From: Polyangium jinanense
GTDB taxonomy: Bacteria; Myxococcota_A; Polyangia; Polyangiales; Polyangiaceae
Assembly (NCBI RefSeq): GCF_028435265.1
Contig: NZ_JAGTJK010000012.1
Location: 38,900 to 102,899, forward strand
DNA: 64,000 nucleotides
Direction of reading: 5' to 3'
This document shows positions 7,472 to 47,430 of this stretch, piece by piece. The notes below the pieces were generated by a model. That model had not been told where the DNA came from, did no database searches, and saw only the letters and a program-made list of their open reading frames with translations. Numbering within the stretch: the first letter of the stretch is position 1; every line of letters starts with the position of its first letter. A program made the position numbers and the translations under genes.

Positions 7472-7679
7472 TCCGTCAACGGGGGGACGTGCGAAGGGGT
7501 GACGGGACGGTACGGGAGGCTCGTGGGGGGCCTTCCGCCCAGGGGCGCCACACGTGTGACGTTCGTCATGACCGCGTAGAGAAGATGATCCGCGCCCCGC
7601 CGACGCGTATGCTGGTAACGGTGCGGGCAAACGGGACCTCGACGTCGTCGGACCACGCTCTTCGCAAACCGCCTTCGGG

Positions 7680-10600
7680 ATGAGAGTCGGGCAGGTCCTC
7701 GCGCAGAGATTCCGCGTCGACGCCCAGGTCGGGGGCGGCGGCATGGGGCAGGTCTATCGCGCCTTCGATCTCTCCAGCGGCGAGATCGTGGCCGCGAAGA
7801 TCCTGAACGACACGGCGCCCGAGACCGTGGCGCGGTTCGAGCGGGAAGGCCGGGCGCTCGCGCGGCTCTCGCACCCCGGCATCGTCCGCTACGTGGCGTA
7901 CGACGTGATGCCGGACGGGCAGCCATTCCTGGTGATGGAGTGGCTCGAAGGCGAGGATCTCGCGCAAAGGCTCGCGCGCACGCACCTCACGGTCCCCGAG
8001 ACGATCACGCTCGCGACGCGCGTGGCCGAGGCGCTCGGCGCCGCGCACGCGCAGGGCATCGTCCACCGTGACCTCAAGCCCGGCAATGTCTTTCTCGTTG
8101 GAGGTCGAAGCGAGTCGCCGAAGATCCTCGATTTCGGCATCGCGTTTTTCGGCGGCAGCGCCCGCATCACCGCGACCGGCACGATGATGGGCACGCCGAG
8201 CTACATCGCGCCCGAGCAGGCGCGCAGCGGCGGCGTGGTCGACGCCTCGGCCGACGTGTTTTCCCTCGGATGCCTGCTCTTCGAGTGCCTCTCGGGCCGG
8301 CCTCCTTTCCAGGGCGATCACTTCGTCGCGGTGCTCGCGAAGGTCATCTTCGAGGAGGCGCCGCGGCTCCACGAGCTCGGCGTCGTCGTGCCCCCGTGGC
8401 TCGACGAGCTCGTCGCGCGCATGCTCTCGAAGGAGCCCACGCGGCGGCCGCGCGACGGCGCCACGCTCGCCCGCGCCCTCGAAGCCGAGACGATCGACGA
8501 CGACGGCCTCGACGACGTGCCGCCGCGCTCGCTCGGCAAGCGTGAGCGGCGCTTCCTCGGCGTCGTGCTGCTCGGCCCGCCCGCGTCCGCGCCGCCCATC
8601 ACCTCGACCTCGAAGACGCTCGCGGTCTCCACGCCCGACACGATGCGCTCGGTGGTCACGCGGTTCGGCGCGCACCTCGAGCTCCTCGCCGACGGCACGG
8701 CCGTCGTGATCCTGGACCACACGAGCGTGCCGACGGACATCGCCGCGCAGGTCGCCCGGTGCGCGCTCGCGCTGCGCGAGTTTTTTCCGGGGGTGCCCAT
8801 CGCTGTGACCACCGGGTGGTGCGAGCTCGGTCGCGGCCTGCCGGTCGGCGAGGCGATCGAACGGGCGATCTGGCTCCTGCACATGGAGGGACCCGTCCCC
8901 GGGCCACGCGTCGCGATCGACGAGACCACGGCGGGCCTGCTCGACAGCCGCTTCGACTTCGTCGAGCTCGCGCCCGGCGGCTGCGAACTGCGCGGCGAGC
9001 GCGTCTCGGCCGAGGCCTTCCGCCCGCTGCTCGGCAAGCTCACGCCATGCGTGGGGCGCGAGCACGAGCTTGCCCTGCTCGAACAGAGCTTCACGAACGC
9101 CGAGAACGAACCTGCGGCGCTCGCCGTGGTGGTCACGGGATCTGCCGGCATCGGCAAATCGCGCCTCGTGCACGAGTTCATCGAGCGTCGCAAGCGCGCG
9201 GCCGCGCCCGTCGAGATCCTGTGGGGCCGCGGGGATCTGCAGCGGGCCGGCTCCACGTTTGGCCTGCTCGCCGACGTGCTCTGGCGTGCGGCCGAGGTGA
9301 AGGGCGGCGAGCCGATCGAGGTGCGGCGCGAGCGCCTCGCCGCGTTCGTCGCGCGGCACGTCCCCGAGCGCGACCTGCGCCGCGTGACCGAGTTCCTCGG
9401 CGAGCTCTCGGGCATCCCGTTCCCCGACGAGGACAGCCTCCCGCTCCGCGCCGCGCGCCAGGACCCCGAGCTCTGCGGCGAGCAGATACGACGCGCATTT
9501 CGTGATTTCCTACGCGCTCTTTGCGCCGAGCGTCCCGCGCTCATCGTCGTCGAGGACGTGCACTGGGGCGATCGCGCCTCCGTCTCGGCGCTCGAAGCGG
9601 CGCTGCGCGAGCTCGCGGACGAACCCATCTTTCTCGTCGCGACCGCGCGTCCCGAGGTCGAGCAAGTGTTTCCGCAGCTCTGGGTCGAGTGTGGCCGCCA
9701 GGAGATCCGGCTGAAGCACCTCTCCGTGAAGGCGAGCGCCCGGCTCGCGCGCAAGGTGCTCGGCGACGCGGCGGAAACGCCTCTCATCGAGCGGCTCGTG
9801 ACCCTTTCCGAGGGGCATCCGTTTTTCCTGGAAGAGCTCGTCCGGGCCGCATCCGAGGATTCGCTCGGCGAATCCTTGCCGGAGACGATCGTGGCCATGG
9901 TGCAGACGCGCCTCGAGCGGCTCGAACCGCGCGCGCGTCGGGCTTTGCGCGCGGCGAGCATCCTCGGCGAGGTCTTCTGGCGTGGCGCCGTCGTGCACAT
10001 GGTCGGCGAGGGCGATCCGAGCAGCGATCCGCTCGCCGCGCTCGTCGCCGGCGAGATTTGCTCGAAGCATCGGGAGAGCCGTTTTCCCAAGGACGAGGAG
10101 TACGCCTTCCGCCACGCGCTCCTCCGCGAGGGCGCGTATGCGCTCCTCACGGACGACGATCGGGAGCTCGGCCATAGGCTCGCCGGCGAATGGCTCGAAC
10201 GGGCGGGCGAGACCGATCCATTGATCCTCGCGAACCACTTCGAGCGCGGCGGCCGGCTCGATCGGGCGGGCACGATGTACATCCGCGGCGCGGAACAAGC
10301 GAGCGCGCGGCGCAATTACCCGGACGCGGAGCGTTACTTCGCGCGCGCCGACGAGCTGCTCTCCGGTTTGCCCGCGGTCGCGCGGCGCGCGCGTGGCCTC
10401 GCGCGGTTTCGGCGGGGCCAGTACGAGGACGCCGTTACCGAGCTTGCGGCCGCGCGGGCCCAGGCCGAGGCGGCGGGAGATGTCCTCTTGCAGGTCGAGC
10501 TCTTGCTCGACGAGTCCATCGTCTTCGACTGGATGGGCGACGTGAAGCGCGCCGAGGAGCTCGTCCTCGACGCGAAGGCGCGGTATGTCGAGGGCACCTC

Positions 10601-11498
10601 GCCGCTCGTCGACGCGCGCCTCCTGCTCGGGCTCGGGCGCTCCTCGCACCGCGCCGACCGCAACGAAGAGGCGGCGCGGGACCTCCTCGCCGCGGCGGAG
10701 AGGGCGGCGGAGCTCGGGGAGGAGGGCTACGAGACGCGGACGATCGCGCTCCTCTTGCTCGGGTTCATCTTGCCGGGCCTCGGGCGCTCCGACGAGGGGG
10801 CTGCCGTTCTCGACGAGGTCATTCATGGCTGCGAGGTCCGCGCCGACCTCCTTCACCTTGGCGGCGCGCTCGCCAACCGGGGCCTCGTCCGGGCTTGCCG
10901 CGGCGATCGGGCCGGGCTCATCGCCGATTACGAGCAAACCATTGCCATCGGCCGCGAGATCGGCCAGCCCACGCTGGAGCTCATCGGGCATTACAATCTG
11001 GGTGAATATCTTTACCTGATGGACGACCTCCCCGCGGCCGAGCCATACATCCGCTCCGCCGCGGCCTCGTTTCCGCGGCCGAACATCGGGGCGCACCCTG
11101 CGATCGTCAAGTTGCTCGAAGCCCGGGTTCACCTTTATCGCGGCGACGAGGCTTCTGCGGCGGCGATCATAGCGGCCATTCGCAAGGAGCAGGTGGAAGC
11201 GCGGGCACAGGGGACCGAGATTTTGGCGCCCTCCGAGGAGGTCCTCTGCGCCATGGTCGAGCTTGCCACGACCGACGCGTCGGCGGAGCGCTGGGACGAG
11301 CTCGAAGAGCGCTCGACGCGGTGCTCGGTGGGACAGGAGCGGCTCGAGGTCCTCGAAGCGCGGGCGCTCACGGCGCTCCGCCGGGGCCGGCGCGACGACG
11401 CTGCGCGGCACCTCGAGGCCGCGCTCGACGTGGCCTCGCGGGTTGCGAACGTCATGACGCCGCGGCTCCGGCGTGCGCTCGTCGCGGCGAAGGGTTGA
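7680..11498 (+). CDS. Ser/Thr protein kinase fused to an AAA (STAND-like) ATPase and C-terminal TPR-like repeats (paralog 1)
   Basis: The N-terminal Hanks kinase has GGMGQVYRA, VAAKIL, HRDLKPGNV and DFG...APE motifs. A P-loop VVTGSAGIGKSRL follows, then a roughly 600-aa alpha-helical repeat region. Total length is 1272 aa. Confidence 0.85.
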   Translation: MRVGQVLAQRFRVDAQVGGGGMGQVYRAFDLSSGEIVAAKILNDTAPETVARFEREGRALARLSHPGIVRYVAYDVMPDGQPFLVMEWLEGEDLAQRLARTHLTVPETITLATRVAEALGAAHAQGIVHRDLKPGNVFLVGGRSESPKILDFGIAFFGGSARITATGTMMGTPSYIAPEQARSGGVVDASADVFSLGCLLFECLSGRPPFQGDHFVAVLAKVIFEEAPRLHELGVVVPPWLDELVARMLSKEPTRRPRDGATLARALEAETIDDDGLDDVPPRSLGKRERRFLGVVLLGPPASAPPITSTSKTLAVSTPDTMRSVVTRFGAHLELLADGTAVVILDHTSVPTDIAAQVARCALALREFFPGVPIAVTTGWCELGRGLPVGEAIERAIWLLHMEGPVPGPRVAIDETTAGLLDSRFDFVELAPGGCELRGERVSAEAFRPLLGKLTPCVGREHELALLEQSFTNAENEPAALAVVVTGSAGIGKSRLVHEFIERRKRAAAPVEILWGRGDLQRAGSTFGLLADVLWRAAEVKGGEPIEVRRERLAAFVARHVPERDLRRVTEFLGELSGIPFPDEDSLPLRAARQDPELCGEQIRRAFRDFLRALCAERPALIVVEDVHWGDRASVSALEAALRELADEPIFLVATARPEVEQVFPQLWVECGRQEIRLKHLSVKASARLARKVLGDAAETPLIERLVTLSEGHPFFLEELVRAASEDSLGESLPETIVAMVQTRLERLEPRARRALRAASILGEVFWRGAVVHMVGEGDPSSDPLAALVAGEICSKHRESRFPKDEEYAFRHALLREGAYALLTDDDRELGHRLAGEWLERAGETDPLILANHFERGGRLDRAGTMYIRGAEQASARRNYPDAERYFARADELLSGLPAVARRARGLARFRRGQYEDAVTELAAARAQAEAAGDVLLQVELLLDESIVFDWMGDVKRAEELVLDAKARYVEGTSPLVDARLLLGLGRSSHRADRNEEAARDLLAAAERAAELGEEGYETRTIALLLLGFILPGLGRSDEGAAVLDEVIHGCEVRADLLHLGGALANRGLVRACRGDRAGLIADYEQTIAIGREIGQPTLELIGHYNLGEYLYLMDDLPAAEPYIRSAAASFPRPNIGAHPAIVKLLEARVHLYRGDEASAAAIIAAIRKEQVEARAQGTEILAPSEEVLCAMVELATTDASAERWDELEERSTRCSVGQERLEVLEARALTALRRGRRDDAARHLEAALDVASRVANVMTPRLRRALVAAKG

Positions 11499-11751
11499 GG
11501 GCGAGCACCCTTTCGTTTCGTAAGGGCCGCATCAGGTTTTTACTGTATGCAATGCGTCGCGATCGTGCGCCGACGCACCCTTCTTATTTGGCGTCGCGTG
11601 GCACTTGCGCATGTTGAGCAATTTCGGCGCAGTGGTTTCGCCATTTTTGTGCTTGCTTCGTTCTTGGAATGCATCTAGACATAATGGAATGTCCGGAAAC
11701 TCTGCGACATTCGGCTCCGTTGGTTTCTTGCTGCAGGAGCGGAGGTCAATC

Positions 11752-12588
11752 ATGCGTGTTCTCGGTCGAGGGGCTCAGCTCGTGGTTTTGGCGGCGGCTC
11801 TTGGAGGGTGCACCGCGGAGGTGGGGCCGGAGGAGGATGCGGTCGGGGTTGCGGAGGGCGAGATCGTCAAGACCAATGCGCTCAACGTGAATGCGCTCAA
11901 CGTGAACGCGCTCAATGTGAACGCGCTCAACGTGAACGCGCTCAACGTGAACGCGCTCGATCCGGATTCGCTCTCGGCGATCCGGAATCCTGGGGCGAAC
12001 GGCGACCTCGCCCGCGAGTTCGTCAAGTACGCCGTGAGCTGCGCGCTCAATGCGGGCCAGACGTTCGAGTTCTCCTGGACCGACGCGCAGGGCGTCGAGC
12101 ACCCCGAGGTTTACGTGGGTGCGCTCGGGCTCTCACCGGACTGGCACACGGGCCCGCTCGACCTGACGGGCCAGCGCATGGTGAGCGCTTGCCTCGCGGG
12201 GCTCACGAATTACTACGGCACGCACGTCACCATCTCGATGCGCGCGCCCGAGGTGCCTTTGAAGGTCATCGACCCGGCCGAGCTCACGAACTACCCGAAC
12301 ATCGAGGGCGCGTTCTGGGGCAACCTCTGGGGCGATACGTCCTATGTCCACGCCTGTTACAACGCCGATACGATCGCGAACTCCCGCGCCCATTCTCGCG
12401 ACTGCGCCGCGGGCCACCTGAACCCCGACAACTCCATCGACGAGTGCGGCCTCATCGATATCGTGGGTCCGTGCAGCGAGGTCTGCGAGCCGGTGAACGG
12501 TGAGACGGGCGCGTACCCCTCGTGCATCGTGCACCCGGGGCAGGATCCCACCATGACCGAGCACATCATCACGACCGCGCTGCCCTGA
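11752..12588 (+). CDS. secreted Cys-rich lipoprotein with six NALNV pentapeptide tandem repeats (paralog A of three)
   Basis: I chose the start MRVLGRGAQLVVLAAALGGC (lipobox) with a GGAGG RBS. The body carries the (NALNV)x6 repeat and conserved GQRMVSAC...EGAFWGNLWG...ACYN...SRDCAAGHL...ECG.IDIVGPCS motifs shared with the two downstream paralogs. Confidence 0.65.
   Translation: MRVLGRGAQLVVLAAALGGCTAEVGPEEDAVGVAEGEIVKTNALNVNALNVNALNVNALNVNALNVNALDPDSLSAIRNPGANGDLAREFVKYAVSCALNAGQTFEFSWTDAQGVEHPEVYVGALGLSPDWHTGPLDLTGQRMVSACLAGLTNYYGTHVTISMRAPEVPLKVIDPAELTNYPNIEGAFWGNLWGDTSYVHACYNADTIANSRAHSRDCAAGHLNPDNSIDECGLIDIVGPCSEVCEPVNGETGAYPSCIVHPGQDPTMTEHIITTALP
11875..11964 (+). repeat. six tandem 15-bp repeats (aaYgcgctcaaYgtg) encoding (NALNV)6
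   Basis: Near-perfect direct repeats seen in the sequence. They are in frame within the lipoprotein gene. Confidence 0.9.
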
Positions 12589-12769
12589 ACGGGCCCTTTC
12601 CCACCGGCACCGTCCCGTACACCCCCCCCTCCATCGCGCGCGACCGGCCCGATGCTCGCGCCGCGCAACGCGTTGTGCCCTCCGATCATCCAAGCACGAA
12701 CCCGTCGGCGATCCGTCCGGCACTCGAAGCGGTCGTCCACGGGGTTCGAATCCGTACAAGGGAGGGCTT

Positions 12770-13597
12770 ATGCAAGTTTGGTTCAGGACGATAGGGCTCC
12801 TGGTTTGCTTATCGGGTTGTGCAGGGGTCGGCGAGATCTCCGAGGACGTACTCGAGGCCGAGGGCGTGCTGGTGCAGGGTAACAAACTGGCCGCGAACTC
12901 GCTCGCGTTGAACTCGCTGGCGCTGAACGGAATTGCCCTGAATGGGATCGGGCTGAATTCGATGGATCCGACGTCGCTTTCGGCCATCCAGGACGCGGGC
13001 GTGAAGGGCGCGCGTGCGCGCGCGTTCCTTCGTTACGCGATCGGCTGCGCCTTCGCGCCCTCGCAGAGCTTCGCGTTCACCTGGTGGGACGCGGCGCGCG
13101 TCGCTCACGAAGAGACGTACCACGGGGAGCTGGGCGTCGCCCCCGGCTGGTCCACGGGGCCCCTCGACCTCCAGGGGCAACGCATGGTGAGCGCCTGCGT
13201 GGCTGCGCGGGTCAACTATTACGAGGTGCCGGTGCTCATATCGATCCGATCGACGCAGCCGCCCCTCGAGGTCCCCGGGGACAAGGAGCTCGACCATTTC
13301 CCGGACGTCGAGGGCGCGTTCTGGGGCAACCTCTGGGGCACCGCGCCCGCCATCTACGCTTGCTACAACAGCGAGACCGTCGCGAACTCCCGCGGGTGGA
13401 GCCGCGACTGCGCCGCAGGGCATTTGCGCGACGACGGCACGATCGAGGAGTGCGGCATGATCGACATCGTCGGCCCCTGTAGCGCCGTGTGCGGACCTTT
13501 GATCAGCGGCGGTCGATACTACCGATTATGCGGTGACAAACCTGACGGGAAAGGCAAATCGAAAACGAACCTCGTCGTGACGACCGCGCTGCCCTGA
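12770..13597 (+). CDS. secreted Cys-rich lipoprotein, paralog B (NSLAL/NGIAL repeats)
   Basis: Signal/lipobox LLVCLSGC. It has 5 degenerate pentapeptide repeats and the same conserved C-terminal domain as 11752..12588. Confidence 0.65.
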   Translation: MQVWFRTIGLLVCLSGCAGVGEISEDVLEAEGVLVQGNKLAANSLALNSLALNGIALNGIGLNSMDPTSLSAIQDAGVKGARARAFLRYAIGCAFAPSQSFAFTWWDAARVAHEETYHGELGVAPGWSTGPLDLQGQRMVSACVAARVNYYEVPVLISIRSTQPPLEVPGDKELDHFPDVEGAFWGNLWGTAPAIYACYNSETVANSRGWSRDCAAGHLRDDGTIEECGMIDIVGPCSAVCGPLISGGRYYRLCGDKPDGKGKSKTNLVVTTALP

Positions 13598-13722
13598 TCG
13601 CCGCTCCGACCCGGACACCTTTCCGCGCAGCGTGCGACCGAGCCGCGCAACGCATTCCAGCCAGAGATCATCGAAGCCCGATACCCCCCGCGGACGAACC
13701 GCCCCGGGGAGAATGCCGTTCC

Positions 13723-14565
13723 TTGGAGGTGGACATGCGAGCTTGGTCGCCGTTGATGATGCTCTTCGCGTTGACCCCCGGTTGCACCGCTTACATCGAC
13801 GAGACTTCTGATGACGTCATGGAGGCGGAGGTCGCGCTGGTGCAGGGAAACCACCTGTCTTCGAACGCGCTCGCGCTCAATTCGCTCGCGCTGAACGGGA
13901 TCGCCCTGAACGGGATCGCGCTGAATACCCTCGACCCGAAGGCCCTCACGGCGATAGAGGACCCGGGGTCCAATGGCACGCTTGCCCGTCGTTTTCTCAA
14001 ATATGCGGTCGGCTGCGCCTTCACCACCTCGCAGAGTTTTTCCTTCTCCTGGACCGACGCGTCGAACGTGGTCCACGACGAGACGTATTGGGGCGAGCTC
14101 GGCGTCGCGCCCGGCTGGGCCACGGGGCCGCTCAACACACAGGGGCAGTACATGGTGAGCGCCTGCCTGGCGGCCCGCGTCAATTATTACGAGGTGCCCG
14201 TCGTCATTTCGATCCGATCACTCACCGAGCCCTTGAAGACGCTCAGCGGCAGCTCGGAGCTCGCCGCGTATCCGGACGTCGAAGGCGCGTTCTGGGGCAA
14301 CCTGTGGGCGCCCACGCCATTTCTTCACGCCTGCTACAACAGCAATACGGTGACGAACTCCCGATCCTGGAAACGCGATTGCGCCGTGGGGCACCTCGTC
14401 GCCGGCGGAGGTGTCGAGGAGTGCGGGATGATCGACATCGTCGGTCCCTGCTCCACGGCGTGTCAGACCTTGAACGGCGCGGGTCAGTATTATCCGTCCT
14501 GCACCGAAAGGCCCGGCCAGAGCTCGACGACCACGAAGTTCGTACTTACCACTGGATTGCCCTGA
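13723..14565 (+). CDS. secreted Cys-rich lipoprotein, paralog C
   Basis: Signal LFALTPGC, repeats NALALNSLALNGIALNGIALN, and the same conserved domain (GQYMVSAC, EGAFWGNLW, IDIVGPCS). Confidence 0.65.
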   Translation: MEVDMRAWSPLMMLFALTPGCTAYIDETSDDVMEAEVALVQGNHLSSNALALNSLALNGIALNGIALNTLDPKALTAIEDPGSNGTLARRFLKYAVGCAFTTSQSFSFSWTDASNVVHDETYWGELGVAPGWATGPLNTQGQYMVSACLAARVNYYEVPVVISIRSLTEPLKTLSGSSELAAYPDVEGAFWGNLWAPTPFLHACYNSNTVTNSRSWKRDCAVGHLVAGGGVEECGMIDIVGPCSTACQTLNGAGQYYPSCTERPGQSSTTTKFVLTTGLP

Positions 14566-14655
14566 TACCACCCCGAAAGTGCAGTCTCTCTTTCCACGCC
14601 TTCCTCCGTTCCAGGCGGGCTCCACACCATTACATTCGACCCGGTCGGATATCGA

Positions 14656-17600
14656 TTGTCGTTTCCTTCCCGATGGCCCCTGGACGCGGGAAATCCTAGG
14701 GTTACGCTTCCCCTTGTGCGGCCGGGAGAAGTGCTCGGTGGGCGCTTCCGCGTCGAGGCGCGTGTCAATGCAGGGGGGATGGGCGAAATCTTTCGCGCCA
14801 TAGACCTCGTGACCGGTCACGTCGTCGCCGCGAAGATCCTCGTCGCCGTTTCTCCCGAGAGCCTTTCGCGCTTCCGTCGCGAGGCGCAGATCCTGGAGCG
14901 CCTCTCGCATCCCGGCATCGTCCGCTACGTCGCCTACGACACGTCCTCGGCGTCGAGCCCGCTGCTCGTGATGGAATGGCTCGAAGGCGAGGACCTCGGG
15001 CGCAGGCTCGCCCGCGGGCCGCTATCGCTCCGCGAGACCCTCACGCTCGGCCAGCGCCTCGCCGAGGCCCTCTCCGTCGCGCACGACGCCGGCGTCGTGC
15101 ACCGCGATCTCAAGCCGCAAAACGTCTTCCTCGTGAACGGAGCCGTCTCCGAGCCGCGGATCCTCGACTTCGGCATCGCGCATTGTGGGGAAGCTTCGCG
15201 CATCACGCAGACCGGCACCGTCATCGGCACGCCGAGCTACATGGCACCCGAGCAGGTCCGCAGCGGCAGCATCGTCAAGGCGAGCGCCGACGTCTTCTCG
15301 CTCGGATGCCTGATGTTCGAGTGCATCACCGGCGCGCCGCCCTTCCGCGCCGATCACACGATCGCCGTCCTTGCGAAGATCATCTTCGAGGACGCGCCCC
15401 GCCTCGCCGAGCGCGCGCCCGCTGTGCCCTCGTGGCTCGATGGCCTCGTCGCCCGGATGCTCGCCAAAGACCCGCTCGGGAGGCCACAAGACGGCGCGGC
15501 CGTGGCGTTCGCGCTCGCCGCCGAGAAGGACCTCGAGCCCCCGAGCTCGGAGGCCCCACGCTCCTCCGCGCCTCGATCGACGCTCGGGGAGGGCGAGCGG
15601 AGGTTCCTCGGCGTCGTGCTCCGCGGCCGCCGTGATATCGCGCTCGGCCCGTTCGGCCCGACGACCACGCTCGCCTGCAACTCGCCCACGGACGACCTCG
15701 GCGCGATCGCCGAACGCTTCGGCGGACACCTCGAGGTCTTCGCGGACGGCACCGCGGCCGTGGTGATCGATCGGACGCGCGTGCCCACCGACGTCGCGGC
15801 CCACGTCGCCCGCTGCGCGCTCGCGCTCTGGGAGCGGGCGCCCGGCGCCGCCATGGCCGTCGCCGCGGGCTTTGGCGAGCGCGCGCGGGGCGTGCCCGTC
15901 GGCGAGGCCATCGACCGCGCCGCGCGGCTCCTCCACGCGCGGGGCGGCGAGGCCCGTATCGCCCTCGACGAGACCACGGCGGGCCTGCTCGACGCGCGCT
16001 TCGACGTCGAGGCCCAAAAGCGCGGCGGCTTCGCGCTCCTCGGCGAGCGCGCGAGCTTCGAGGTCTCGCGGCCCCTGCTCGGCAAGGCCACGCCTTGCGT
16101 CGGCCGCGAGCACGAGCTCGGCCTCTTCGACCTCACCTTCGGCGCCTGCAAGAACGAGCCGGCCGCGCGTGTCGTCGTCGTCTCCGGCCCCGCGGGCATT
16201 GGCAAATCGCGCCTGCTCCACGAGTTCGTCGAGCGCCAGCGGGCCGCCGTCGAGCCCGCCGAGATCTGGTTCGGCCGCGGCGATCCCTTGCGCGTCGCTT
16301 CGAGCTTCGGCCTGCTCGCCGAGGTCCTGCGCGGCGCCTCGGGCATTCGCGGCGGCGAGCCCCTCGCGCGCCGCCGCGAGTTGCTTTCCGCCCGCGTCGC
16401 GCGCCGCGTCCCCGAGCGGGATCGCCGCCGCGTCGCGAGCTTCCTCGGCGAGCTCGCGGGCGTGCCTTTTCCGGACGACGAGGACTTGCCGCTCCGCGCC
16501 GCGCGGCAGGACCCCGAGCTTTGCGGCGAGCAGATGCAGCGCGCCCTCCGCGATTTTTTGCGCGCGGAATGCGGGGACAAACCCTTGGTCCTCCTCCTCG
16601 AAGACGTGCAATGGGGCGACCGCGCCTCGCTGCTCGCGCTCGACGCCGCGCTCGAGGGCCTCGCGTTCGAGCCGATCTTCCTCCTCGCCTCGGCGCGCCC
16701 CGAGATTGACGAGCTCTTTCCCGGCCTCTGGTCGAGCCGCGGCCGGCAGGACGTGCGCCTCCGGCAGCTCTCGCCGCGGGCGTGCGTGCGCCTCGTTCGC
16801 CACGCGCTCGGCGAGCTTCGCTCTGGGCTCGAAGAGCGCCTCGTCGCGTCCTCCGAGGGGCATCCGTTTTTCCTGGAAGAGCTCATTCGCGCCGAGGCCG
16901 AGGGGCGCGGCGGCACCCCGCCCGGGACGGTCGTGGCCATGGTGCAATCACGCCTCGAACGATTGGAGCCGCGCGCGCGCCGCACCTTGCGCGCCGCGAG
17001 CATTCTCGGCGAGGTCTTCTGGCGTGGCGCGGTCGCGCGCCTCGCGGGCGAGGACGACGAATCCGTCGCGCGTGACCTCGCGGCCCTCGTCTCGCACGAG
17101 ATCGTCACGCGCCAGCGCGAGAGCCGCATTCCTGGCGAACCCCAATATGCGTTCCGACAGGCGCTCTGGCGCGAGGGCGCATATGCGATGCTCACGGACG
17201 AGGATCGCACGCTCGGCCATCACCTCGCGGCCGAATGGCTGGAGGAGAAGGGCGAAGCCGACGCGCTCGTCCTGGCGGAACATTTCGAGCGCGGCGGCGC
17301 CTCGGCGCGGGCGGCCTCGTTTTACCTGGCCTCGGCCGAGCAATCGGCGGCCCGCAAGGATTACCTCGACGCCGAGCGATGTTATGGCAAGGCCGAGGCG
17401 CTCTGGGGCGAGCTCCCAACGCGCGCGCAGCGCGGCCGTGGCCTCTCGCGTTTTCGCCTCGGCCGCTTTCACGATGCGCTCACCGAGCTTGCGCGGGCGC
17501 GCGAGGGCGCGGCGCGGCGCGGGGAGGCGTCGCTCATCGTGGAGCTTTACCTCGACGAGGCCATGGTGCTCGACTGGATGGGCGAATATCGCGAAGCCGA

Positions 17601-18555
17601 ACGCCGCGTGCTCGCCGCGCGTATCGAGGAGCAGGCCCTCCCTTCGCGCTCGCCGCTCCTCGAAGCGCGCCTCTTGCTCGGCGTCGGCCGCTCGGCATTG
17701 CGTGCCGAGCGCGAGGAGGAGGCCGCGGACGAGCTTTCGCGCGCGGCCGAGCTCGCGAGCCGCCTCGGCGACGAGGGATACGAGACCTACGTGATCGCGC
17801 ATCTGCTCCTCACCTACCTCCTGCCCTTGCTCGGCCGGGTCGACGAGGCCGCGGCATTGCTCGACGAGGTCATTCGCCGCTGCGAGGAGCGCGGCGACCT
17901 TTTGCACCTCGGCGCCGCGTGGAACACGCGCGCCATGGTCCGGGGCATTCGTGGCGATCGCGAGGGCATGATCCGGGACTTCGAGCGCACGAGTGAGCTC
18001 GGCCGCGAGCTCGGCCAGCCGACGATGGAGCTCGCGGGTCATTACAACCTGGCCGAGCACCTGTACTGGATGGACGACGTCGAGGCCGCCGAGCCCATGA
18101 TTCGCGCGGCGCTGGCCGTCGCGGCGCGGCGTGCCGGCTGCGTGCGTCCGGCCATGCTCGCCCTGCTCGACGCGCGTATTGCCCTCGCCCGCGGCGATGC
18201 GCGGACGGCGCGGGCCATTGCCTCTGCATTGCGCGGGGGCGCGGCCGAGATGTCGCCCTCGGAGGACGTGCTTTGCGCGATGATCGAGCTCGCGACGGGG
18301 GACGACGGGGGCTCCCTTTCCGACATCGAATCGGCGTGGGAGGCGCTCGAAGCCCGCTCGGCGCGCGCGAGCGTGGGGCAGGAGCACATCGAGGTGCTGG
18401 AGGCGCGGGCGCTGCATGCGTCTCGCCTCGGCCAGCGGGAGCGGGCGATGCGTCAGCTCGAGAAAGCCATCGCGGCAGCGTCGCGGATTCCGAATGTGAT
18501 GAGCGAGCGGCTGCGGCGGAGGCGGGACGAGCTTGCGTGCCTGGGCGCGGCTTGA
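14656..18555 (+). CDS. Ser/Thr protein kinase–AAA ATPase–TPR protein (paralog 2)
   Basis: Closely similar along its full length to 7680..11498 (GGMGEIFRA, HRDLKPQNV, P-loop VVSGPAGIGKSRL). The true start may be the GTG/TTG near 14713-14716, giving VRPGEVLGGRF, which aligns to the paralog 1 N-terminus. Confidence 0.85.
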   Translation: MSFPSRWPLDAGNPRVTLPLVRPGEVLGGRFRVEARVNAGGMGEIFRAIDLVTGHVVAAKILVAVSPESLSRFRREAQILERLSHPGIVRYVAYDTSSASSPLLVMEWLEGEDLGRRLARGPLSLRETLTLGQRLAEALSVAHDAGVVHRDLKPQNVFLVNGAVSEPRILDFGIAHCGEASRITQTGTVIGTPSYMAPEQVRSGSIVKASADVFSLGCLMFECITGAPPFRADHTIAVLAKIIFEDAPRLAERAPAVPSWLDGLVARMLAKDPLGRPQDGAAVAFALAAEKDLEPPSSEAPRSSAPRSTLGEGERRFLGVVLRGRRDIALGPFGPTTTLACNSPTDDLGAIAERFGGHLEVFADGTAAVVIDRTRVPTDVAAHVARCALALWERAPGAAMAVAAGFGERARGVPVGEAIDRAARLLHARGGEARIALDETTAGLLDARFDVEAQKRGGFALLGERASFEVSRPLLGKATPCVGREHELGLFDLTFGACKNEPAARVVVVSGPAGIGKSRLLHEFVERQRAAVEPAEIWFGRGDPLRVASSFGLLAEVLRGASGIRGGEPLARRRELLSARVARRVPERDRRRVASFLGELAGVPFPDDEDLPLRAARQDPELCGEQMQRALRDFLRAECGDKPLVLLLEDVQWGDRASLLALDAALEGLAFEPIFLLASARPEIDELFPGLWSSRGRQDVRLRQLSPRACVRLVRHALGELRSGLEERLVASSEGHPFFLEELIRAEAEGRGGTPPGTVVAMVQSRLERLEPRARRTLRAASILGEVFWRGAVARLAGEDDESVARDLAALVSHEIVTRQRESRIPGEPQYAFRQALWREGAYAMLTDEDRTLGHHLAAEWLEEKGEADALVLAEHFERGGASARAASFYLASAEQSAARKDYLDAERCYGKAEALWGELPTRAQRGRGLSRFRLGRFHDALTELARAREGAARRGEASLIVELYLDEAMVLDWMGEYREAERRVLAARIEEQALPSRSPLLEARLLLGVGRSALRAEREEEAADELSRAAELASRLGDEGYETYVIAHLLLTYLLPLLGRVDEAAALLDEVIRRCEERGDLLHLGAAWNTRAMVRGIRGDREGMIRDFERTSELGRELGQPTMELAGHYNLAEHLYWMDDVEAAEPMIRAALAVAARRAGCVRPAMLALLDARIALARGDARTARAIASALRGGAAEMSPSEDVLCAMIELATGDDGGSLSDIESAWEALEARSARASVGQEHIEVLEARALHASRLGQRERAMRQLEKAIAAASRIPNVMSERLRRRRDELACLGAA

Positions 18556-18640
18556 TTCAGCCCTCGTGGCCGCGTCGTCTGGCGTGTCTCGTGGAGCAGC
18601 CCCGCGAGCTTCTGCGCGACGGGCAGGAGCCCGCCGGTGG
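18500..18640. repeat. copy A of a duplicated convergent-gene junction (kinase 3' end plus a fragment of the 3' end of a small gene)
   Basis: 18502-18560 matches 19936-20004 (2 mismatches in about 69 bp). 18577-18640 matches 20183-20245. Copy A lacks about 175 bp present in copy B. Confidence 0.8.
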
Positions 18641-18810
18641 TCCGTTCATGGGACGATCCGGGCTCGCCGGAAGCTGGGTGCAGGGATCGCGGGTATGGGT
18701 GGGTCGAGCCCGACAGCCGTGGGCGCCCCAATCACGGGGGCCATCCACCGTGAGGAGGACCACGGACGGCGCTGTGGCCGTCATGGGCCACAGCGCCACG
18801 TGGGTGGAAA

Positions 18811-19491
18811 TCAGTTGACGTTCGTCGCTTCGTCGTAGAAGCGGAGCTGCGCCACCTTCAAGCCGTTGTTGTCGTAATCCCAGAGGAAATTCTCGTATCC
18901 ATCGGCGAAGAGCGGCACACGATCGATGTCGCCGTCGCCGTCCACGTCCGCGTACACGTAGAGCAGCTCCTTCGAGACGTTCGTGAACGTCTGCTTGCCC
19001 TTCGTGCGATCGAGCTCCATCGAATAAACGCTGCAGTACTCCTCCGCCTCGTCCGTCGGGCTCGTCACCGTCTCGGTCATGCACGTCGTGGTCGTCGATG
19101 AGCCGCCGGGCGTACCGAGCGGGCGCGCGAACACCGAATACGAGGTAATTCCGTCGTTATCGGCGTCGGCCGCGGGGAGCTCGAATTTCGCGCCGTTGGC
19201 GTCGGTGCCGTTGGCATCGAGCACGTTGAAGGACGGACCCTCCGCGAGGTAAATCTGCGCCGGTCCGTCGAGCGGCACGAAGATGCGGCTGCCACTGTTT
19301 CCCGTCATATCCGGGTTCTTGCCCTTCGGAACGCCGATGATGTTGAGCGTGTGATGCGAGCCGCTCGGGGCGCCATTTCCGTTCGCCTGCTCCGCCACGC
19401 CGAGATCTCTTTCCTCGTGCAGTTCGGACGCGCAGCCGAACAGGAGAGCGCAGAGAGGAAGAGCAGCAAAAGTGAATTTGATCGTGTTCAT
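18811..19491 (-). CDS. secreted lipoprotein, hypothetical (Asp-rich DGDGDID motif)
   Basis: I chose the internal start MNTIKFTFAALPLCALLFGC (lipobox). The 226-aa protein is Asp/Gly-rich with a possible Ca-binding DVDGDGDID motif. Confidence 0.55.
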   Translation of the reverse strand: MNTIKFTFAALPLCALLFGCASELHEERDLGVAEQANGNGAPSGSHHTLNIIGVPKGKNPDMTGNSGSRIFVPLDGPAQIYLAEGPSFNVLDANGTDANGAKFELPAADADNDGITSYSVFARPLGTPGGSSTTTTCMTETVTSPTDEAEEYCSVYSMELDRTKGKQTFTNVSKELLYVYADVDGDGDIDRVPLFADGYENFLWDYDNNGLKVAQLRFYDEATNVN

Positions 19492-19933
19492 TGGGGGACG
19501 GCCTCCTTTTTGGGAGCCGGGGGCTCCATGTGTTGGCGCATTCTCCCATGGCACCAGCCATACCAAGTTTTATATGTTTTCCTCGCCGTCCGGACGCGCG
19601 CCCTATGTGCAATGCAAGCGCGGTGGTCATTCAGCTGTGCATGAGCTGCCTTCTATGGTCTGATTGCACGGCGAAGTGACCACCAAGTGATGTGACCCAC
19701 GTGCTCACAGGGGAGAGGTTACGCTGAGATCGTGCTCTGCGAGCACTGGGCGGTTGCCCCGGACGGGGAGGGGAACGGCGAACCACGCATTTCGCCGCGA
19801 GCGATTTGGCCATTTGTCGACGTCGTCACGATGCTCATGAGCTTCCTCAGCGTTGGAGACGGAAGCTCACGAATCGCCCAGGAGCGTTCGGAGGGAAAGG
19901 ACGACGAGGAAGCAGACGATCGATGGTTCGATC

Positions 19934-20245
19934 GGGAATGTGATGAGCGAGCGGCTGCGGCGGAGGCGGGACGAGCTTACGTGCCTAGGCGCGGCTTGAT
20001 TCAGACTTCCTGCTTTGGCTCCTTGGCTTTTTCTTTCGTGGCCGCGGCCTTGTTGGCCGGCCCATACTGGTAGTCCATCAAGGGCGCGACGGGACCGAGC
20101 ACCTCGGCGCCATTCTGCACGCGGTCTGCCCTGCGCTTGGCCTGCGCGGCATTCTCGGCGAGGATCGTGGCGATCTCGTGCCGTGTCGTCTGGCGCGTCT
20201 CGTGGAGCAGCTCCGTGAGCTTTTGCGAGGCGGGCAGGAGCTCGC
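19934..20245. repeat. copy B of the duplicated junction (contains a 66-bp relic of the kinase 3' end including its stop codon)
   Basis: See 18500..18640. Here the relic encodes NVMSERLRRRRDELTCLGAA* with no upstream kinase. Confidence 0.8.
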
Positions 20246-20478
20246 CGATTCGCTGATCCCTCGCGAAAGCAGCGGCGAGCCGCTCCTTGTCTTTCTCGTT
20301 GAGCCCTGCGCGGTCGGCGTCTTCGGGCTTCAGTCCGAGGAGATTCTTGACGGCGGCCTCGAATCCGTCGCGTAGCTTCGTGAGCTTTTGAATCTGCTCC
20401 GGCGTGATGTCCGTTACCTTGATATCGCTTGCGTCGATGATGAGGTCGCCGACCTCGGGGTACTTCGGGGTGCCCATG
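20001..20478 (-). CDS. hypothetical small protein (159 aa)
   Basis: Start MGTPKYPEVGDLIIDASDIK with a GGAGG RBS. It is the C-terminal part of a 656-codon ORF whose upstream about 1.5 kb is Pro/Arg-rich junk. Its motif LLPASQKLTELLHETRQTTR is echoed as a relic at 18571-18640. Confidence 0.45.
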
Positions 20479-20677
20479 ACCGCCTCCCTTTCTGTTCTAC
20501 GGCGCTCGGCCGTTTGGTGTAGACGAATGCACAACGCTGGCGGACGTTCAAACCTTCCAAGCCGAGGGCGGCATCCTCGGAGGCTCGGGCGAGATGCCTG
20601 GGGAGGGGAGGCGGAGCCGTCGCGAGGAGGGCCCGCGGCTCCGAGCGTGGGCGGCTCGGGGTGGTGGGGCGGCGGAT

Positions 20678-20800
20678 GGCCCTGGAGGGCATCGGGATAG
20701 CCTTGGAGGGTCGTGAGACATGCTCCAGGGCCATGGGCGAGCCGTGGAGGCCATGGGGATAGCCTCGGAGGGTCGTTGCCGACCGTTGGAGGGTATCTCG
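20678..20800. repeat. two tandem imperfect copies of a roughly 60-bp unit (…tggagggcatcgggatagccttggagggtcgtg…) in a non-coding region
   Basis: Seen in the sequence. It lies within a roughly 1-kb region with no convincing gene. Confidence 0.5.
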
Positions 20801-21498
20801 CTTTCGTGGGGACCCTGGGCGATGGGCTCCACGAATGCGGGGATGTGCTTCGGGGGTGGGTCGGTGGGCTGCGCGGGTCGGGGCCTCGGGTCGGGGATTG
20901 TTGGCCCTGTCGGGGAGGGTCTGGCAAGGAGGATTTCACATGCGCGGGGGTGACGCGCGGGCGCTGCAGGCAGCGGCAGACAGGGGATGTGTATGCAGAG
21001 GGTCGTTGTCGGGGTCTTGGTCGCGTGGGGGGTTCTGTTCGGGGTGGGGTGTGAGAGCAAGTGCCGAAACCCGAAAACACACTGATCTTGGTGGGGTCGA
21101 AGGCCCCGCCATTCAGTGTAACGTCACCATTATATGCCCGAATCAGGCAGGGCGTCCTGATTCCGTGGAGCATTTGCAGGGGAACGAGGATCCGGTCATC
21201 CGCGATCATGGCTCCTGGAATCAAGGCATGTGCAAGAAGGAAGCCATGAAAATAAGGACCTACGAGACAGAGATAAAATGCGAGTTCGAGGCCGCTCCCG
21301 CGTTGATCTGCCTCGACGGCGCTGGCACTTCGAACGGGCCCGACTACACGGGGCCGACCGGCGGGACCCTCGTCACGATCGGGGTGGGCGCTGGCACCGG
21401 GGACTATTGGTTCGACGAGGAGGAGGGGGCAGGCGGAGAAGGGGGCTTCGATGCCCACCCCGGGGAGGGAGGCCACGGCGGGACCTGAAGTCCAGCCT

Positions 21499-22137
21499 TC
21501 ACCGCGGCGAAGATGATTGTGCGCCTGGAGTGGGAGCGCGTGCAGGGATGGTGCGTTTACGAGGGATGGGCGTGACGGCGTCGAAGCGGGCCAACCAATC
21601 GGTTCGGGCGAGAGCCGGGCAGTGTTGCTCGACATCCACGGGGAAGCATTCATCGAAGGCGCGATACATCGCCTGATACGTCGCCTCCGTGGGGTCGTCC
21701 AGCAACACAAAGAACCCGGCCTTGTGTCCGCACCGGGAGCGAGCCGCATCGACGTTGCGCCAGAAGGCGGCGCCCTGCATGTCGTCACAGGGGGCGCAAA
21801 ACATGGGGTCGAGGCCCGTGCACTCGGCTTGCTTCGGGCAGATCGCGCGCACGCAACCAGCGACGCACGCGTCCACGAACTCTTCGTCCACGTACGGACA
21901 GACGTCCCATTCATGGCAGCCATCGAAGACGTACCCGAGGTCATCCTCGCAGTGCTTGTACATCGGGTCATCCTCGTCCGGGCCGCGCGCCCCCAGGATG
22001 AGCGCTGCGGCGGCGGCGATGACGAGGGCGGCGAAGGCCGCGCGGCGTGTCTTCGGGCTCGGAGCTCTCACAAGGGTGCACCTTACATCATCGGAGCCGG
22101 GATCGCGAGTCGGTTCGTTCTTCCCGGTTGTCTCCAC
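21499..22137 (-). CDS. secreted Cys-rich protein, hypothetical
   Basis: The signal peptide RRAAFAALVIAAAAALILG sits after a roughly 30-aa N-region. The true start may instead be a GTG near 22071. It has 14 Cys residues, and its C-terminal half is homologous to 22213..22521. Confidence 0.5.
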   Translation of the reverse strand: METTGKNEPTRDPGSDDVRCTLVRAPSPKTRRAAFAALVIAAAAALILGARGPDEDDPMYKHCEDDLGYVFDGCHEWDVCPYVDEEFVDACVAGCVRAICPKQAECTGLDPMFCAPCDDMQGAAFWRNVDAARSRCGHKAGFFVLLDDPTEATYQAMYRAFDECFPVDVEQHCPALARTDWLARFDAVTPIPRKRTIPARAPTPGAQSSSPR

Positions 22138-22212
22138 GCCCCGCCTGGCTCAGCGTCCCTCCACCGAACCGGGGCCGACCCCGGAGCCGGGGGCCAAGGC
22201 GGGATCTGAGGG

Positions 22213-22521
22213 TTGTCGAGGAACACATGCACGGAGCTCGACCCGATCTGGTGTGGAATTCCCTGCGAGGACACTACGGGGGCCACGTTCTGGGCCCACA
22301 TGCACGTCGTCCAAGGCCGGTGCGGCCATCTTTTCGACGATCTCGATGGCAACGGCAAGCTCGACGAGTACGAGCACTATTCCTTCCTCCTTTGCACCGG
22401 CGCCGAAAGCAAAAAGCTCTGCCCTGCGGTCCTTACGTGGCGGGACGAGCTCAACGAAGAAGAGCAAGAAGAACTCAGACGAAGGAGCATCGCTCCCGGG
22501 ACGCCCAGCTCGGCGCAGTAA
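22213..22521 (+). pseudogene. divergently oriented partial paralog of the C-terminal half of 21499..22137 (no signal peptide; possibly a gene fragment)
   Basis: CTELDPIWCGIPCEDTTGATFW...RCGH aligns with CTGLDPMFCAPCDDMQGAAFW...RCGH in the neighbouring gene. Confidence 0.35.
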
Positions 22522-22788
22522 CCTCGTCCCCCACCGCTGCCGGCGCTCACGTCCGCAGCCACCGCCCAAGACCCGTCCCCGGTTTGTCCCGATCCCTCCT
22601 CATCCACCCGCCCGGGCCGAGAACGGGTTTTTCTGGGTACGTCGACTTTTCCTCTTGCCTTTCTCCCTCTCCTCGGGCAAACCTTTTTGCGGGAGGACGG
22701 GCCCACGCTCCGCGCACCTGCGGCTCGCGAGCACCCACCCGGAAGCACCGGGAGACGGGACCGAGCAAAACCCAAAAAAACAAATTGT

Positions 22789-28504: not shown

Positions 28505-28945
28505 TCAAGCGGCGTGGTTTGAGGATGCGACGCGCGGCTGTGAATGAAGCCAGGCGAGCGCTTCCTCCTTGTGATCGAAGAATGCGAAGGGGTAACGCGG
28601 CCGCTCGGGTTTCAGGATCCGGATGGCGGCGATGATCATCTCGAGGACGACCCGCACGCCGAACGGCGCGCCGACGAAGGCCAGGGCCGCGTGCTTGGAG
28701 GCGTCTTTGCGGGCGCGGACCGCCTCCCGGAGGTCGCGCGGAACGCTCTTCAAGGGCGTGATATCCATCAGCACCTTGCACGGACCTCGCTCGGCCGTCG
28801 TCCGGTATACATGATCGAGGACGCGGTTGCAGTCGTCCACCTCGAGCGGAACCGCGAACTCCAGGACGAGCAGGTCGGGCGGCACGAACGTCACGACGTG
28901 CGGGCCGAAGCGGATGCGTTCCGTCGAATCGTTTTTCATGGGCAA
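28505..28945 (-). CDS. STAS-like small protein, paralog 2 of 3
   Basis: Same family as 28035..28469. Intergenic gaps within the trio are 35 and 76 bp, consistent with an operon. Confidence 0.55.
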   Translation of the reverse strand: MPMKNDSTERIRFGPHVVTFVPPDLLVLEFAVPLEVDDCNRVLDHVYRTTAERGPCKVLMDITPLKSVPRDLREAVRARKDASKHAALAFVGAPFGVRVVLEMIIAAIRILKPERPRYPFAFFDHKEEALAWLHSQPRVASSNHAA

Positions 28946-45811: not shown

Positions 45812-46037
45812 GAGGGCGCGGGGCGGCGCTATTCCAACGTCGCAGAAATGATCGGCCGGAGACGGACTCGATTGGGGTCGTCGATGCTACGGAGGGTCTC
45901 GGAGCGCGGGGCGAGTGGTGATACTCTCCCGCCTCGCCATGAAAACCTCTTCGATTCTTTCGGCGAGCCTTGCCCAGCACGTCGCGAAGCACATGTTCAT
46001 GGCCGTCGTGAACGAGTGATCCAAAAGGAAAACCACC

Positions 46038-46724
46038 ATGGCCGAGCTCGTTTCCCTCGCCGAAGATCTCTGGGCCGCGGAGCACCCCGTGAAGATGCCC
46101 GGCGGCGTCCGGATGGACACGCGGATGACCGTGGTGCGCCTGCCCGGGGAAAAGCTCTGGGTGCATTCACCCATTCCGATCGACGACACGCTCGCCGCCG
46201 AGCTCACGAAGCTCGGAAAGATCTCCTACCTCGTCGCGCCGAACCTGTATCACAACCTCTTCCTCGGCCGGGCTTCGGAGCGTTTCCCCGAGGCGCGGGT
46301 CTTCGCGCCGCCAGGGCTCGAGAAGAAAATTCCTTCGCTCCGCATCGACGAGGTGCTTTCCGCGGATACGCCCGCCACGTGGGCCGACGTCTTCACGCAG
46401 CGCCTCGTCGAGGGCGCGCCGCAGATGCAGGAGGTTGCGTTCCTTCACCGCCCGAGCAAGACGCTCGTCGTCTCGGATCTCCTGTTCAACATCGAGCGGC
46501 CCGAAGGACTCGCGACGAAGGTCGTGCTCACGATGATGGGCACGCGCGGCAAGCTCGCGCGGAGCCGGATGTGGAATTTCATCACGAAGGACAAGGCCGC
46601 GTGGAGGGCGTCGGTGCGCGAAGTGGTCGCGCTCGATTTCGATCGGCTGATCATGGCGCACGGCGAGGTCGTCGCCTCGGGCGCGAAGGCCCGCGTGAAC
46701 GAGGCCCTCGGCCCGTACGTTTGA
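46038..46724 (+). CDS. DUF4336-family protein (tandem copy 1)
   Basis: 228 aa, with HSPIPIDDTL, the LVAPN.H motif and a DFDRLIMAHGEVV end. It is about 75% identical to the next gene. Confidence 0.6.
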   Translation: MAELVSLAEDLWAAEHPVKMPGGVRMDTRMTVVRLPGEKLWVHSPIPIDDTLAAELTKLGKISYLVAPNLYHNLFLGRASERFPEARVFAPPGLEKKIPSLRIDEVLSADTPATWADVFTQRLVEGAPQMQEVAFLHRPSKTLVVSDLLFNIERPEGLATKVVLTMMGTRGKLARSRMWNFITKDKAAWRASVREVVALDFDRLIMAHGEVVASGAKARVNEALGPYV

Positions 46725-46743
46725 GCCCCAAGGAGACCATCGC

Positions 46744-47430
46744 ATGACCGAGCTCGTATCCCTCGCCGAAGATCTCTGGGCCGCGGAGCACCCTCTGCGG
46801 TTCGCCGGCTTTGTCCGGATGAACGCGCGGATGACCGTGGCGCGCCTCCCGGGTGATGAGCTCTGGGTGCATTCGCCCATTCCGATCGACGATACGCTCG
46901 CCGCCGCGCTCGCGAAGCTCGGGCGCGTCGCGTACCTCGTCGCGCCGAACCGGTTTCACAACCTGTTCATCGGCGCCGCGTCGGCGCGTTTCCCGGAGGC
47001 GCGTGTCTTCAGCGCGCCGCGGGTCCAGGAGAAAATCCCCTCGGTCCGCATCGACGAGGTGTTATCCGAAAAGCCGCCCGCCGCGTGGGGCGGCGCCATC
47101 GATTTGCGGCACGTCGAGGGTGTCCCGATGGTGTCGGAGGTGGTGTTCCTGCACCACGCGAGCCGGACGCTCATCGTCTCCGACATCCTGTTCAACATCG
47201 AGAAGCCCGAGGGCCTCGTATCGAAGCTCGTCTACACGGCGCTCGGCACGAACCGAAAGCTCGCGATGGGCCGGGAGTGGCCGCTGATCGCGAAGGACCG
47301 CGCGGCGCTGCGCGCGTCGCTGCGCGGGGTGGCCGCGCTCGATTTCGATCGGCTGATCATGGCGCACGGCGAGGTCGTCGCCTCGGGCGCGAAAGACCGC
47401 GTGCAAGCGGCGTTATCGCCCTACGTCTGA
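46744..47430 (+). CDS. DUF4336-family protein (tandem copy 2)
   Basis: Paralog of 46038..46724, with a 19-bp spacer between the two genes. Confidence 0.6.
   Translation: MTELVSLAEDLWAAEHPLRFAGFVRMNARMTVARLPGDELWVHSPIPIDDTLAAALAKLGRVAYLVAPNRFHNLFIGAASARFPEARVFSAPRVQEKIPSVRIDEVLSEKPPAAWGGAIDLRHVEGVPMVSEVVFLHHASRTLIVSDILFNIEKPEGLVSKLVYTALGTNRKLAMGREWPLIAKDRAALRASLRGVAALDFDRLIMAHGEVVASGAKDRVQAALSPYV

Follow-up and report, generated by a model that had tools for sequence, protein, structure and literature searches.

A lipoprotein gene between duplicated ends of two convergent genes in Polyangium jinanense, a probable scar of single-gene acquisition

Illegitimate recombination, in its homology-facilitated and double forms (de Vries & Wackernagel 2002; Prudhomme et al. 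2002; Meier & Wackernagel 2003, all as cited in PMC5361080), is the nearest described parallel to a locus of Polyangium jinanense where a 1.3-kb insert with a lipoprotein gene lies between two copies of the junction of a protein kinase gene and a small convergent gene. The locus was analysed within a 64-kb stretch of DNA, hereafter the window, to whose positions all coordinates refer; the name Polyangium jinanense gave no literature match. Such recombination resembles our case in that foreign DNA free of mobility genes, with a single gene as cargo, enters at non-homologous or microhomologous joints, and in the short GC-rich microhomology (CTC here) at the joint that can be read. In the homology-facilitated events that have been described, recipient DNA is typically lost, and the donor has to offer a stretch of homology as anchor. 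At our locus 312 bp of recipient DNA are instead duplicated, no anchor is demonstrable as the donor was not found, and the process is not known from Polyangium. Among the closest known processes is also the capture of filler DNA where duplications join, of the kind left by non-homologous end joining (NHEJ) or microhomology-mediated break-induced replication (MMBIR).

Three further systems share parts of the picture. Insertion-duplication mutagenesis has the same topology, heterologous DNA between direct copies of one contiguous target segment, and as here recombination between the copies could revert it without a scar. Our case differs in being a natural isolate, whose insert has no vector or replicon features; moreover, a precursor circle already holding the junction segment would be needed, and the duplicated segment covers two gene ends with neither gene disrupted. 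At Rhs, contact-dependent inhibition and type VI secretion system effector-immunity loci, displacement leaves arrays of orphan 3' ends, for which illegitimate recombination has been proposed, and, as here, gene-end relics beside horizontally acquired genes record the history of insertion; there, however, an incoming variant pushes aside the resident 3' end, and the setting is one of polymorphic toxins (PMC5361080 and references therein). At our locus nothing has been displaced, neither resident gene is damaged, and the setting is not one of toxins or immunity. Target-site duplications of transposons and insertion sequences (IS) likewise place direct target repeats around inserted DNA, but these measure 2-15 bp, against 312 bp here (69 bp of it still intact). 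Insertion of an IS or transposon was rejected for this locus, which has no transposase and no terminal inverted repeats and whose duplication is too long.

We read the locus as a scar that was probably left when the P. jinanense lineage acquired a single gene horizontally, in an insertion accompanied by a 312-bp target duplication through illegitimate recombination. Its anatomy emerged from ungapped and gapped self-comparisons of window 18300-20600, which gave two collinear pairs of direct repeats. Positions 18492-18560 equal 19936-20004 at 67 of 69 bases (self-blastn, E 6e-28), with weaker likeness reaching 18568/20012, and 18563-18636 match 20175-20247 at 88% identity with one 1-nt gap (blastn E 2e-18). 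The 69-mer has exactly two matches at ≤3 mismatches in the window and none in 100 dinucleotide-preserving shuffles, and whole-window self-blast found no third copy of either segment. It comprises kinase codons N1280-A1299, the kinase stop (18553-18555 / 19997-19999), one spacer base and the stop of the small gene, which reads TCA on the plus strand (18557-18559 / 20001-20003). The second segment corresponds to small-gene codons 78-99 (GELLPASQKLTELLHETRQTTR) on the minus strand. Between the two segments the left copy, copy A, is without about 165-170 bp that copy B retains (about 20005/20010-20174, segment a). A first-pass annotation of the sequence had already seen that the last roughly 69 bp of the kinase gene, stop included, recur at 19936-20004 with two mismatches, that the similarity is more than shared low-complexity sequence and that the lipoprotein gene 18811..19491 lies between the copies, all of which hold. 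It also had the repeat abutting the minus-strand small gene, which stands, although that gene spans 20001..20477 and not 20001..20478; the recurrence that it placed at 18577-18640 after the kinase stop is real, with corrected limits of 18563-18636 versus 20175-20247, and the deletion in copy A, put there at about 175 bp, is the slightly smaller one given above.

The duplicated target unit is 312 contiguous bp (19936-20247), of which 69 + 68 bp are still recognisable in the left copy. We call its parts K-tail (the kinase end), a and b, with a prime for relic copies, and the heterologous insert X. X (18637-19935) falls exactly between the collinear direct copies K-tail + b' (18492-18636) and K-tail' + a + b (19936-20247), so that the locus reads K-tail - (a deleted) - b' - X - K-tail' - a - b - c. 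Compared with the orthologous loci of two relatives, Polyangium sp. y55x31 (L001) and Polyangium sp. 15x6 (L002), the window has a surplus of 1444 bases, made up of 1299 for X and 312 for the target duplicate, less ~167 that were deleted.

The state before the insertion can be read from five orthologous loci, those of y55x31, 15x6, a Polyangium metagenome-assembled genome (MAG, L004), 6x1 (L005) and P. mundeleinium (L050). The kinase and small genes are convergent in all five, with stops one base apart (TGAnTCA), and the kinase tail is single-copy and directly against the small gene in every one. Window 18561-19935 is missing from all five loci, no lipoprotein gene occurs there, and X has no blastn, tblastn or tblastx similarity to any of them; nor was the lipoprotein found at any locus of the other sampled Polyangium. 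In L001 and L002, window 12840-18565 and 19936-21056 align to contiguous DNA. The comparison with loci lacking the lipoprotein gene that the first-pass annotation had proposed thus gave uninterrupted junctions with a single kinase tail throughout, and its suggestion of a duplicative insertion or template switch into a former kinase/small-gene junction gains support from these empty sites and from the kinase tree. In that tree (codon-based neighbour-joining) the grouping is ((window, 15x6), y55x31), followed by 6x1 and the MAG; third-position divergence between the kinases of the window and 15x6 is 10.3% in total. Since the window is sister to 15x6 inside a clade without the insert, the insertion is derived in P. 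jinanense, and a single gain on the terminal P. jinanense branch is the parsimonious account. At position 43 the two tail copies of the window agree in a T (GAGCTT) against the C of all five relatives; the duplication therefore postdates this P. jinanense-specific substitution. This is the sole remaining shared derived site of the window copies: GCGGCT of both copies, which had looked derived (GGCT versus ATT in L001/L002), was shown by the further loci L004, L005 and L050 to be ancestral.

Copy A of the junction segment (18492..18565, plus strand) holds kinase codons 1280-1299, the TGA at 18553-18555, a spacer T and relics of the small gene, namely its stop (TCA at 18557-18559) and its last two codons (GCCCTC, E-G-stop on the minus strand). 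The post-stop CAGCCCTC of copy A is identical to L001 and L002, and copy B reads CAGACTTC. The functional small gene of P. jinanense ends QEV-stop, while all five relatives end EG-stop (20004-20009 versus 18560-18565); as the relic in copy A is still E-G-stop, it records the C-terminus of the small gene from before the change to E-V-stop. The internal deletion joint of copy A, J1 (18563..18569), was placed by aligning copy A, copy B and the relatives. It has a CTC microhomology (18563-18565), common to the ancestral post-stop CCCTC and to the ATCTC directly before segment b, and one additional G at 18569; an alternative parse has two deletions via the short repeat TCGTGGCCGCG (20036-20046) / TCGTGCCGTG (20177-20186). 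The other two joints are J2 (18636|18637) and J3 (19935|19936), the left and right ends of X.

The relics have visibly decayed. Segment b' (18569..18636, minus strand), a non-functional relic of small-gene codons 78-99, is 88% identical to 20180-20247. It has 5 unique substitutions in its 68 nt. From the functional copy it differs at 8 sites (5 non-synonymous, 3 synonymous); 7 of these changes took place in the relic, and 6 are AT->GC. As judged from these substitutions, the pattern fits neutral, unselected decay of a local copy and not an imported functional ortholog. K-tail' (19936..20000, plus strand), identified in the repeat comparison, is an orphan, non-functional copy of the last 20 kinase codons and stop, and forms the present 3' flank of the small gene. 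Its expression in the kinase frame was considered and rejected, there being an in-frame stop 52 codons upstream and no plausible start.

X itself (18637..19935; 1299 bp, 62% GC) bears no hallmark of a mobile element. The lipoprotein gene is its only credible open reading frame (ORF); the others are without Pfam matches, with neither a transposase nor an integrase among them, and no tyrosine or serine integrase gene occurs in 18561-19935 or the adjoining DNA. No inverted repeat pairs the two ends of X, blastn of X against plasmid and phage collections gave no match, and neither did the lipoprotein against viral contigs. The best match of the lipoprotein among metagenome contigs has 59% identity, and the non-coding flanks of X had no match by blastn or tblastx in any of the 49 fetched loci.

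The course of events that we infer would begin with an ancestor in which the kinase gene and the 158-aa gene converged with the stop spacing seen in the relatives. One illegitimate-recombination event would have joined two staggered points of this junction, most simply on two sister copies, with the break after small-gene codon 78 (window 20247) in one copy and at kinase codon 1279/1280 (window 19936) in the other. About 1.3 kb of foreign DNA would have been trapped as filler between the ends, by end joining or by microhomology-mediated template switching. The product would be K-tail - a - b - X - K-tail' - a - b - c, with X at the duplication joint. Segment a of the left copy (~165-170 bp) may have been lost in the same event or later by slippage (at CTC, or at TCGTG(G)CCGCG), and the redundant relics b' and K-tail' would then have drifted without selection. 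This position of X leaves the 3' ends of both genes complete; given the single base between the stops, an insertion can spare both genes only if it duplicates the end of each. So unusual a product would have been retained because a plain insertion almost anywhere at the junction truncates one gene. No relic sequence is found on the wrong side of the b|K-tail' joint. An independent later insertion into an existing 312-bp tandem duplication would have a chance of about 1 in 312 of striking the exact joint, so that one event comprising both the duplication and the capture of X is the likelier course.

The enzymology of that event could be otherwise. All three joints might stem from one replicative episode of serial microhomology-mediated template switching, like MMBIR or fork stalling and template switching, along a path with a ~168-nt forward skip at CTC, 1.3 kb on a foreign template and a return 312 nt behind the start. 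Several clustered joints are typical of template switching, and here three novel joints lie close together in one locus, with CTC microhomology and a 1-nt slip at J1, X exactly at the duplication joint, and the palindrome 19917-19934 adjoining J3. We consider this course possible, if on the unlikely side: microhomology at J2 and J3 is unreadable without the donor, a later slippage deletion between TCGTGGCCGCG and TCGTGCCGTG explains J1 equally well, and the path departs from our preferred explanation in enzymology only. A different history, to which we give little credence, makes the insertion-duplication ancestral to several Polyangium species and has it lost without a scar by recombination of kinase tails. 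Recombination of the 69-bp direct repeats should indeed cut out b'-X-K-tail' precisely and yield the exact tight junction of the relatives, and the ~6% decay of the relics speaks for an old event. It would however take at least 2-3 independent losses in place of one gain, the insert being missing in 5/5 relatives, the sister 15x6 and more distant ones alike; in addition, copies A and B share the P. jinanense-specific T at tail position 43, and the lipoprotein is at no locus of the other sampled Polyangium.

Integrase insertion typically leaves direct repeats of tens of bp that restore the target gene at its 3' end, which raises the question of whether X is the remnant of a site-specific integrative element (a prophage or genomic island) at the kinase 3' end, its integrase and most of the rest deleted, with the kinase tail in attP and the 69-bp repeats as attL and attR. 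The tail repeats are 97% identical and overlap the kinase 3' end as an att core would, but the repeat unit runs on past the kinase, its b' part prolonging the target sequence within the small gene, as an att model would not lead one to expect; the true duplicated unit, 312 bp of contiguous target, is more than a kinase tail. With no integrase or other element gene in or beside X, and no similarity of X to phage, plasmid or viral collections, we find this origin very unlikely. Equally unlikely, in our estimate, is Campbell-type (ends-in, single-crossover) integration of a circle bearing X beside a copy of the 312-bp junction. Single-crossover integration does yield the succession of homologous, heterologous and homologous segments seen here. 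It needs a prior molecule with X joined to both ends of the junction segment, however, which merely moves the illegitimate step back; the substitutions in b' are mostly non-synonymous, with no sign of a diverged functional donor copy, and X is without replicon or vector features. That the locus is an assembly artefact, a mis-join or collapsed repeat, deserves a thought as the sequence comes from a draft contig (257,795 bp), and is scarcely credible: artefacts give identical repeats, while these copies are set apart by mismatches (2/69 and 8/68), a 1-nt indel and a deletion of 165-170 bp. These differences are patterned as evolution would leave them, with AT->GC changes specific to the relic, and the lipoprotein has two P. 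jinanense protein accessions (MDC3956691.1 and MDC3984754.1).

Several points weigh against acquisition by insertion with target duplication as we have set it out. The searches made found no donor of X; without one, microhomology at J2 and J3 is not readable, leaving J1 (CTC) as the one readable joint, and end joining and template switching are not separable. Third-codon-position GC (GC3) of the lipoprotein gene is 0.82, inside the host range of 0.76-0.91, so composition lends no independent support to a foreign origin; a foreign gene of this kind must either have come from another organism rich in GC or have ameliorated towards the host since. The low GC of X was dropped as a sign of foreignness, being due to amino-acid composition and non-coding upstream DNA; the resident small gene is as low in GC. 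As composition is uninformative, the argument for horizontal origin rests on phylogenetic distribution. Under this model one reversal is needed at position 49 of b', where the relic agrees with L004 and L050, the more distant relatives. Lastly, the relics carry ~6% of unique substitutions, about as much as neutral divergence has added per lineage in all the time since 15x6 branched off. The event is therefore not recent; less probably, it might even slightly predate that branching, with 15x6 losing the insert again without a scar.

The lipoprotein gene (18811..19491, minus strand) encodes 226 aa with a signal peptide and the lipobox LFGC (Cys20). The protein is 100% identical to the P. jinanense proteins under its two accessions and belongs to a family of 2842 homologs from many phyla, without an assigned function and usually 55-65% identical. 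The best non-self homolog (P0002, 70% identical) lies on an unrelated 53%-GC contig, whose DNA similarity to X is restricted to the coding sequence. No ortholog above 70% identity was found in a database of 5.8 billion proteins, P. mundeleinium and Polyangium sp. 6x1 included. A hairpin (18760..18803; inverted repeat I13) begins 7 nt past the lipoprotein stop, with a perfect 12-bp core (18768-18779 / 18786-18797) around a 6-nt loop and no U-tract. Its free energy is -40.8 kcal/mol (z = -4.5), and 0/200 shuffles fold as well. Standing between two genes, kinase and lipoprotein, that now converge, it probably acts as a terminator. The lipoprotein gene is now also co-directional with, and downstream of, the small gene. 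Its 444-bp upstream region (19492..19935, minus strand; 60% GC) has an AGGAGG ribosome-binding site (RBS) right before the ATG, no match to a sigma-70-type promoter or to Rfam, and ORFs without Pfam matches. The palindrome CGATCGAtggtTCGATCG (19917-19934, 7-bp arms) adjoins J3, the X|K-tail' joint, where it could have caused fork stalling or breakage, or be there by coincidence. With upstream region, coding sequence and strong hairpin, X is a self-contained unit.

That the lipoprotein family forms a recurrent mobile cassette was considered and rejected, as the repeats flanking its members elsewhere are not target duplications. Among 23 metagenomic lipoprotein loci tested, flanking direct repeats occur in 5 (3 independent). 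Those of L031/L032 and L034/L035 are 5' or 3' ends of tandem paralogs, and that of L014 is a repeated upstream/RBS region. In L014 this region of 62 nt (1508-1569 / 2491-2551, 89%) stands ahead of the lipoprotein homolog and again ahead of the gene that follows it, which is not recognisably homologous by tblastn.

Both resident genes are intact. The Ser/Thr protein kinase gene (14656..18555, plus strand) encodes 1299 aa with Pkinase, AAA_16 and TPR domains (Pfam, NCBIfam); its last 20 codons fall within copy A, and its C-terminus is the same in the orthologs of the five Polyangium loci. The small gene (20001..20477, minus strand) encodes 158 aa, 100% identical to P. jinanense KEG38_22720, with its ATG as the reverse complement of 20475-20477; its 3' 243 bp (20005-20247) are part of the duplicated 312-bp target. 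The small protein belongs to a family of 48 hypothetical proteins confined to Polyangiaceae, and neither it nor the lipoprotein has a Pfam or NCBIfam match. An RNA element was also considered and rejected: Rfam has no match in 18300-21500 at E ≤ 1, and the kinase tail shows no significant RNA structure (z -0.14).

Repeats and paralogs are found elsewhere in the window. The kinase is one of two paralogous STK-AAA_16-TPR kinase genes in window 7572-18555 (7862-11044 versus 14898-18095, 72% nucleotide identity), which bracket three mutually similar genes of ~340 aa (11524-14565; 12828-13479 versus 13796-14450, 76%); this layout of kinase, three small genes and kinase is also present in Polyangium sp. 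6x1 and P. mundeleinium. Further afield are a 59-bp tandem repeat (98%) at 1095-1207 and two adjacent pairs of paralogous genes (28548-28944 versus 29080-29476, 74%; 46025-46697 versus 46730-47403, 80%). Upstream of the small gene, window 20478-21498 is ~1 kb without a credible ORF, with a GC skew up to +0.39 (plus strand G-rich) and a 36-nt repeat pair (20679-20714 / 20741-20776, 89%); it is ~88-89% conserved with L001 and L002, roughly the neutral level, and has no Rfam match. The region at 20920-22590 is strain-variable, so the insertion sits at the edge of a locally plastic zone. L001 is without most of 21057-22170, including a 212-aa ORF (21499..22137); L002 retains 21383-22212 and has ~1.8 kb in place of window 20920-21382; and P. 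mundeleinium and 6x1 have other genes upstream of the small gene, a TetR regulator among them.

This is a known kind of event newly documented in Polyangium, a clear if ordinary and well-polarised trace of horizontal acquisition, of modest interest, that leaves current understanding unchanged. It gives a base-resolved view, before and after, of a single foreign gene entering a myxobacterial chromosome without a recognisable mobile element. It also illustrates a selective filter: where convergent stops lie one base apart, survival is restricted to insertions that bring a second copy of both gene ends. Scars like this one can serve as markers for dating and counting element-independent acquisitions, and they carry a warning for annotation, in that orphan gene-tail fragments beside strain-specific genes are relics and not small genes. 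A broader proposal, more speculative and in our judgement unlikely to hold, is that this represents a mode of element-independent gene capture in which foreign DNA is taken up as filler at an unequal joint of sister copies, by NHEJ or template switching. Should it be true, and should many such tail-duplication scars flank strain-specific genes of Polyangiaceae, it would be a significant and so far unquantified route for single genes, one that would matter chiefly at the tightly packed convergent junctions of the very large myxobacterial genomes, where only duplicative insertions survive.

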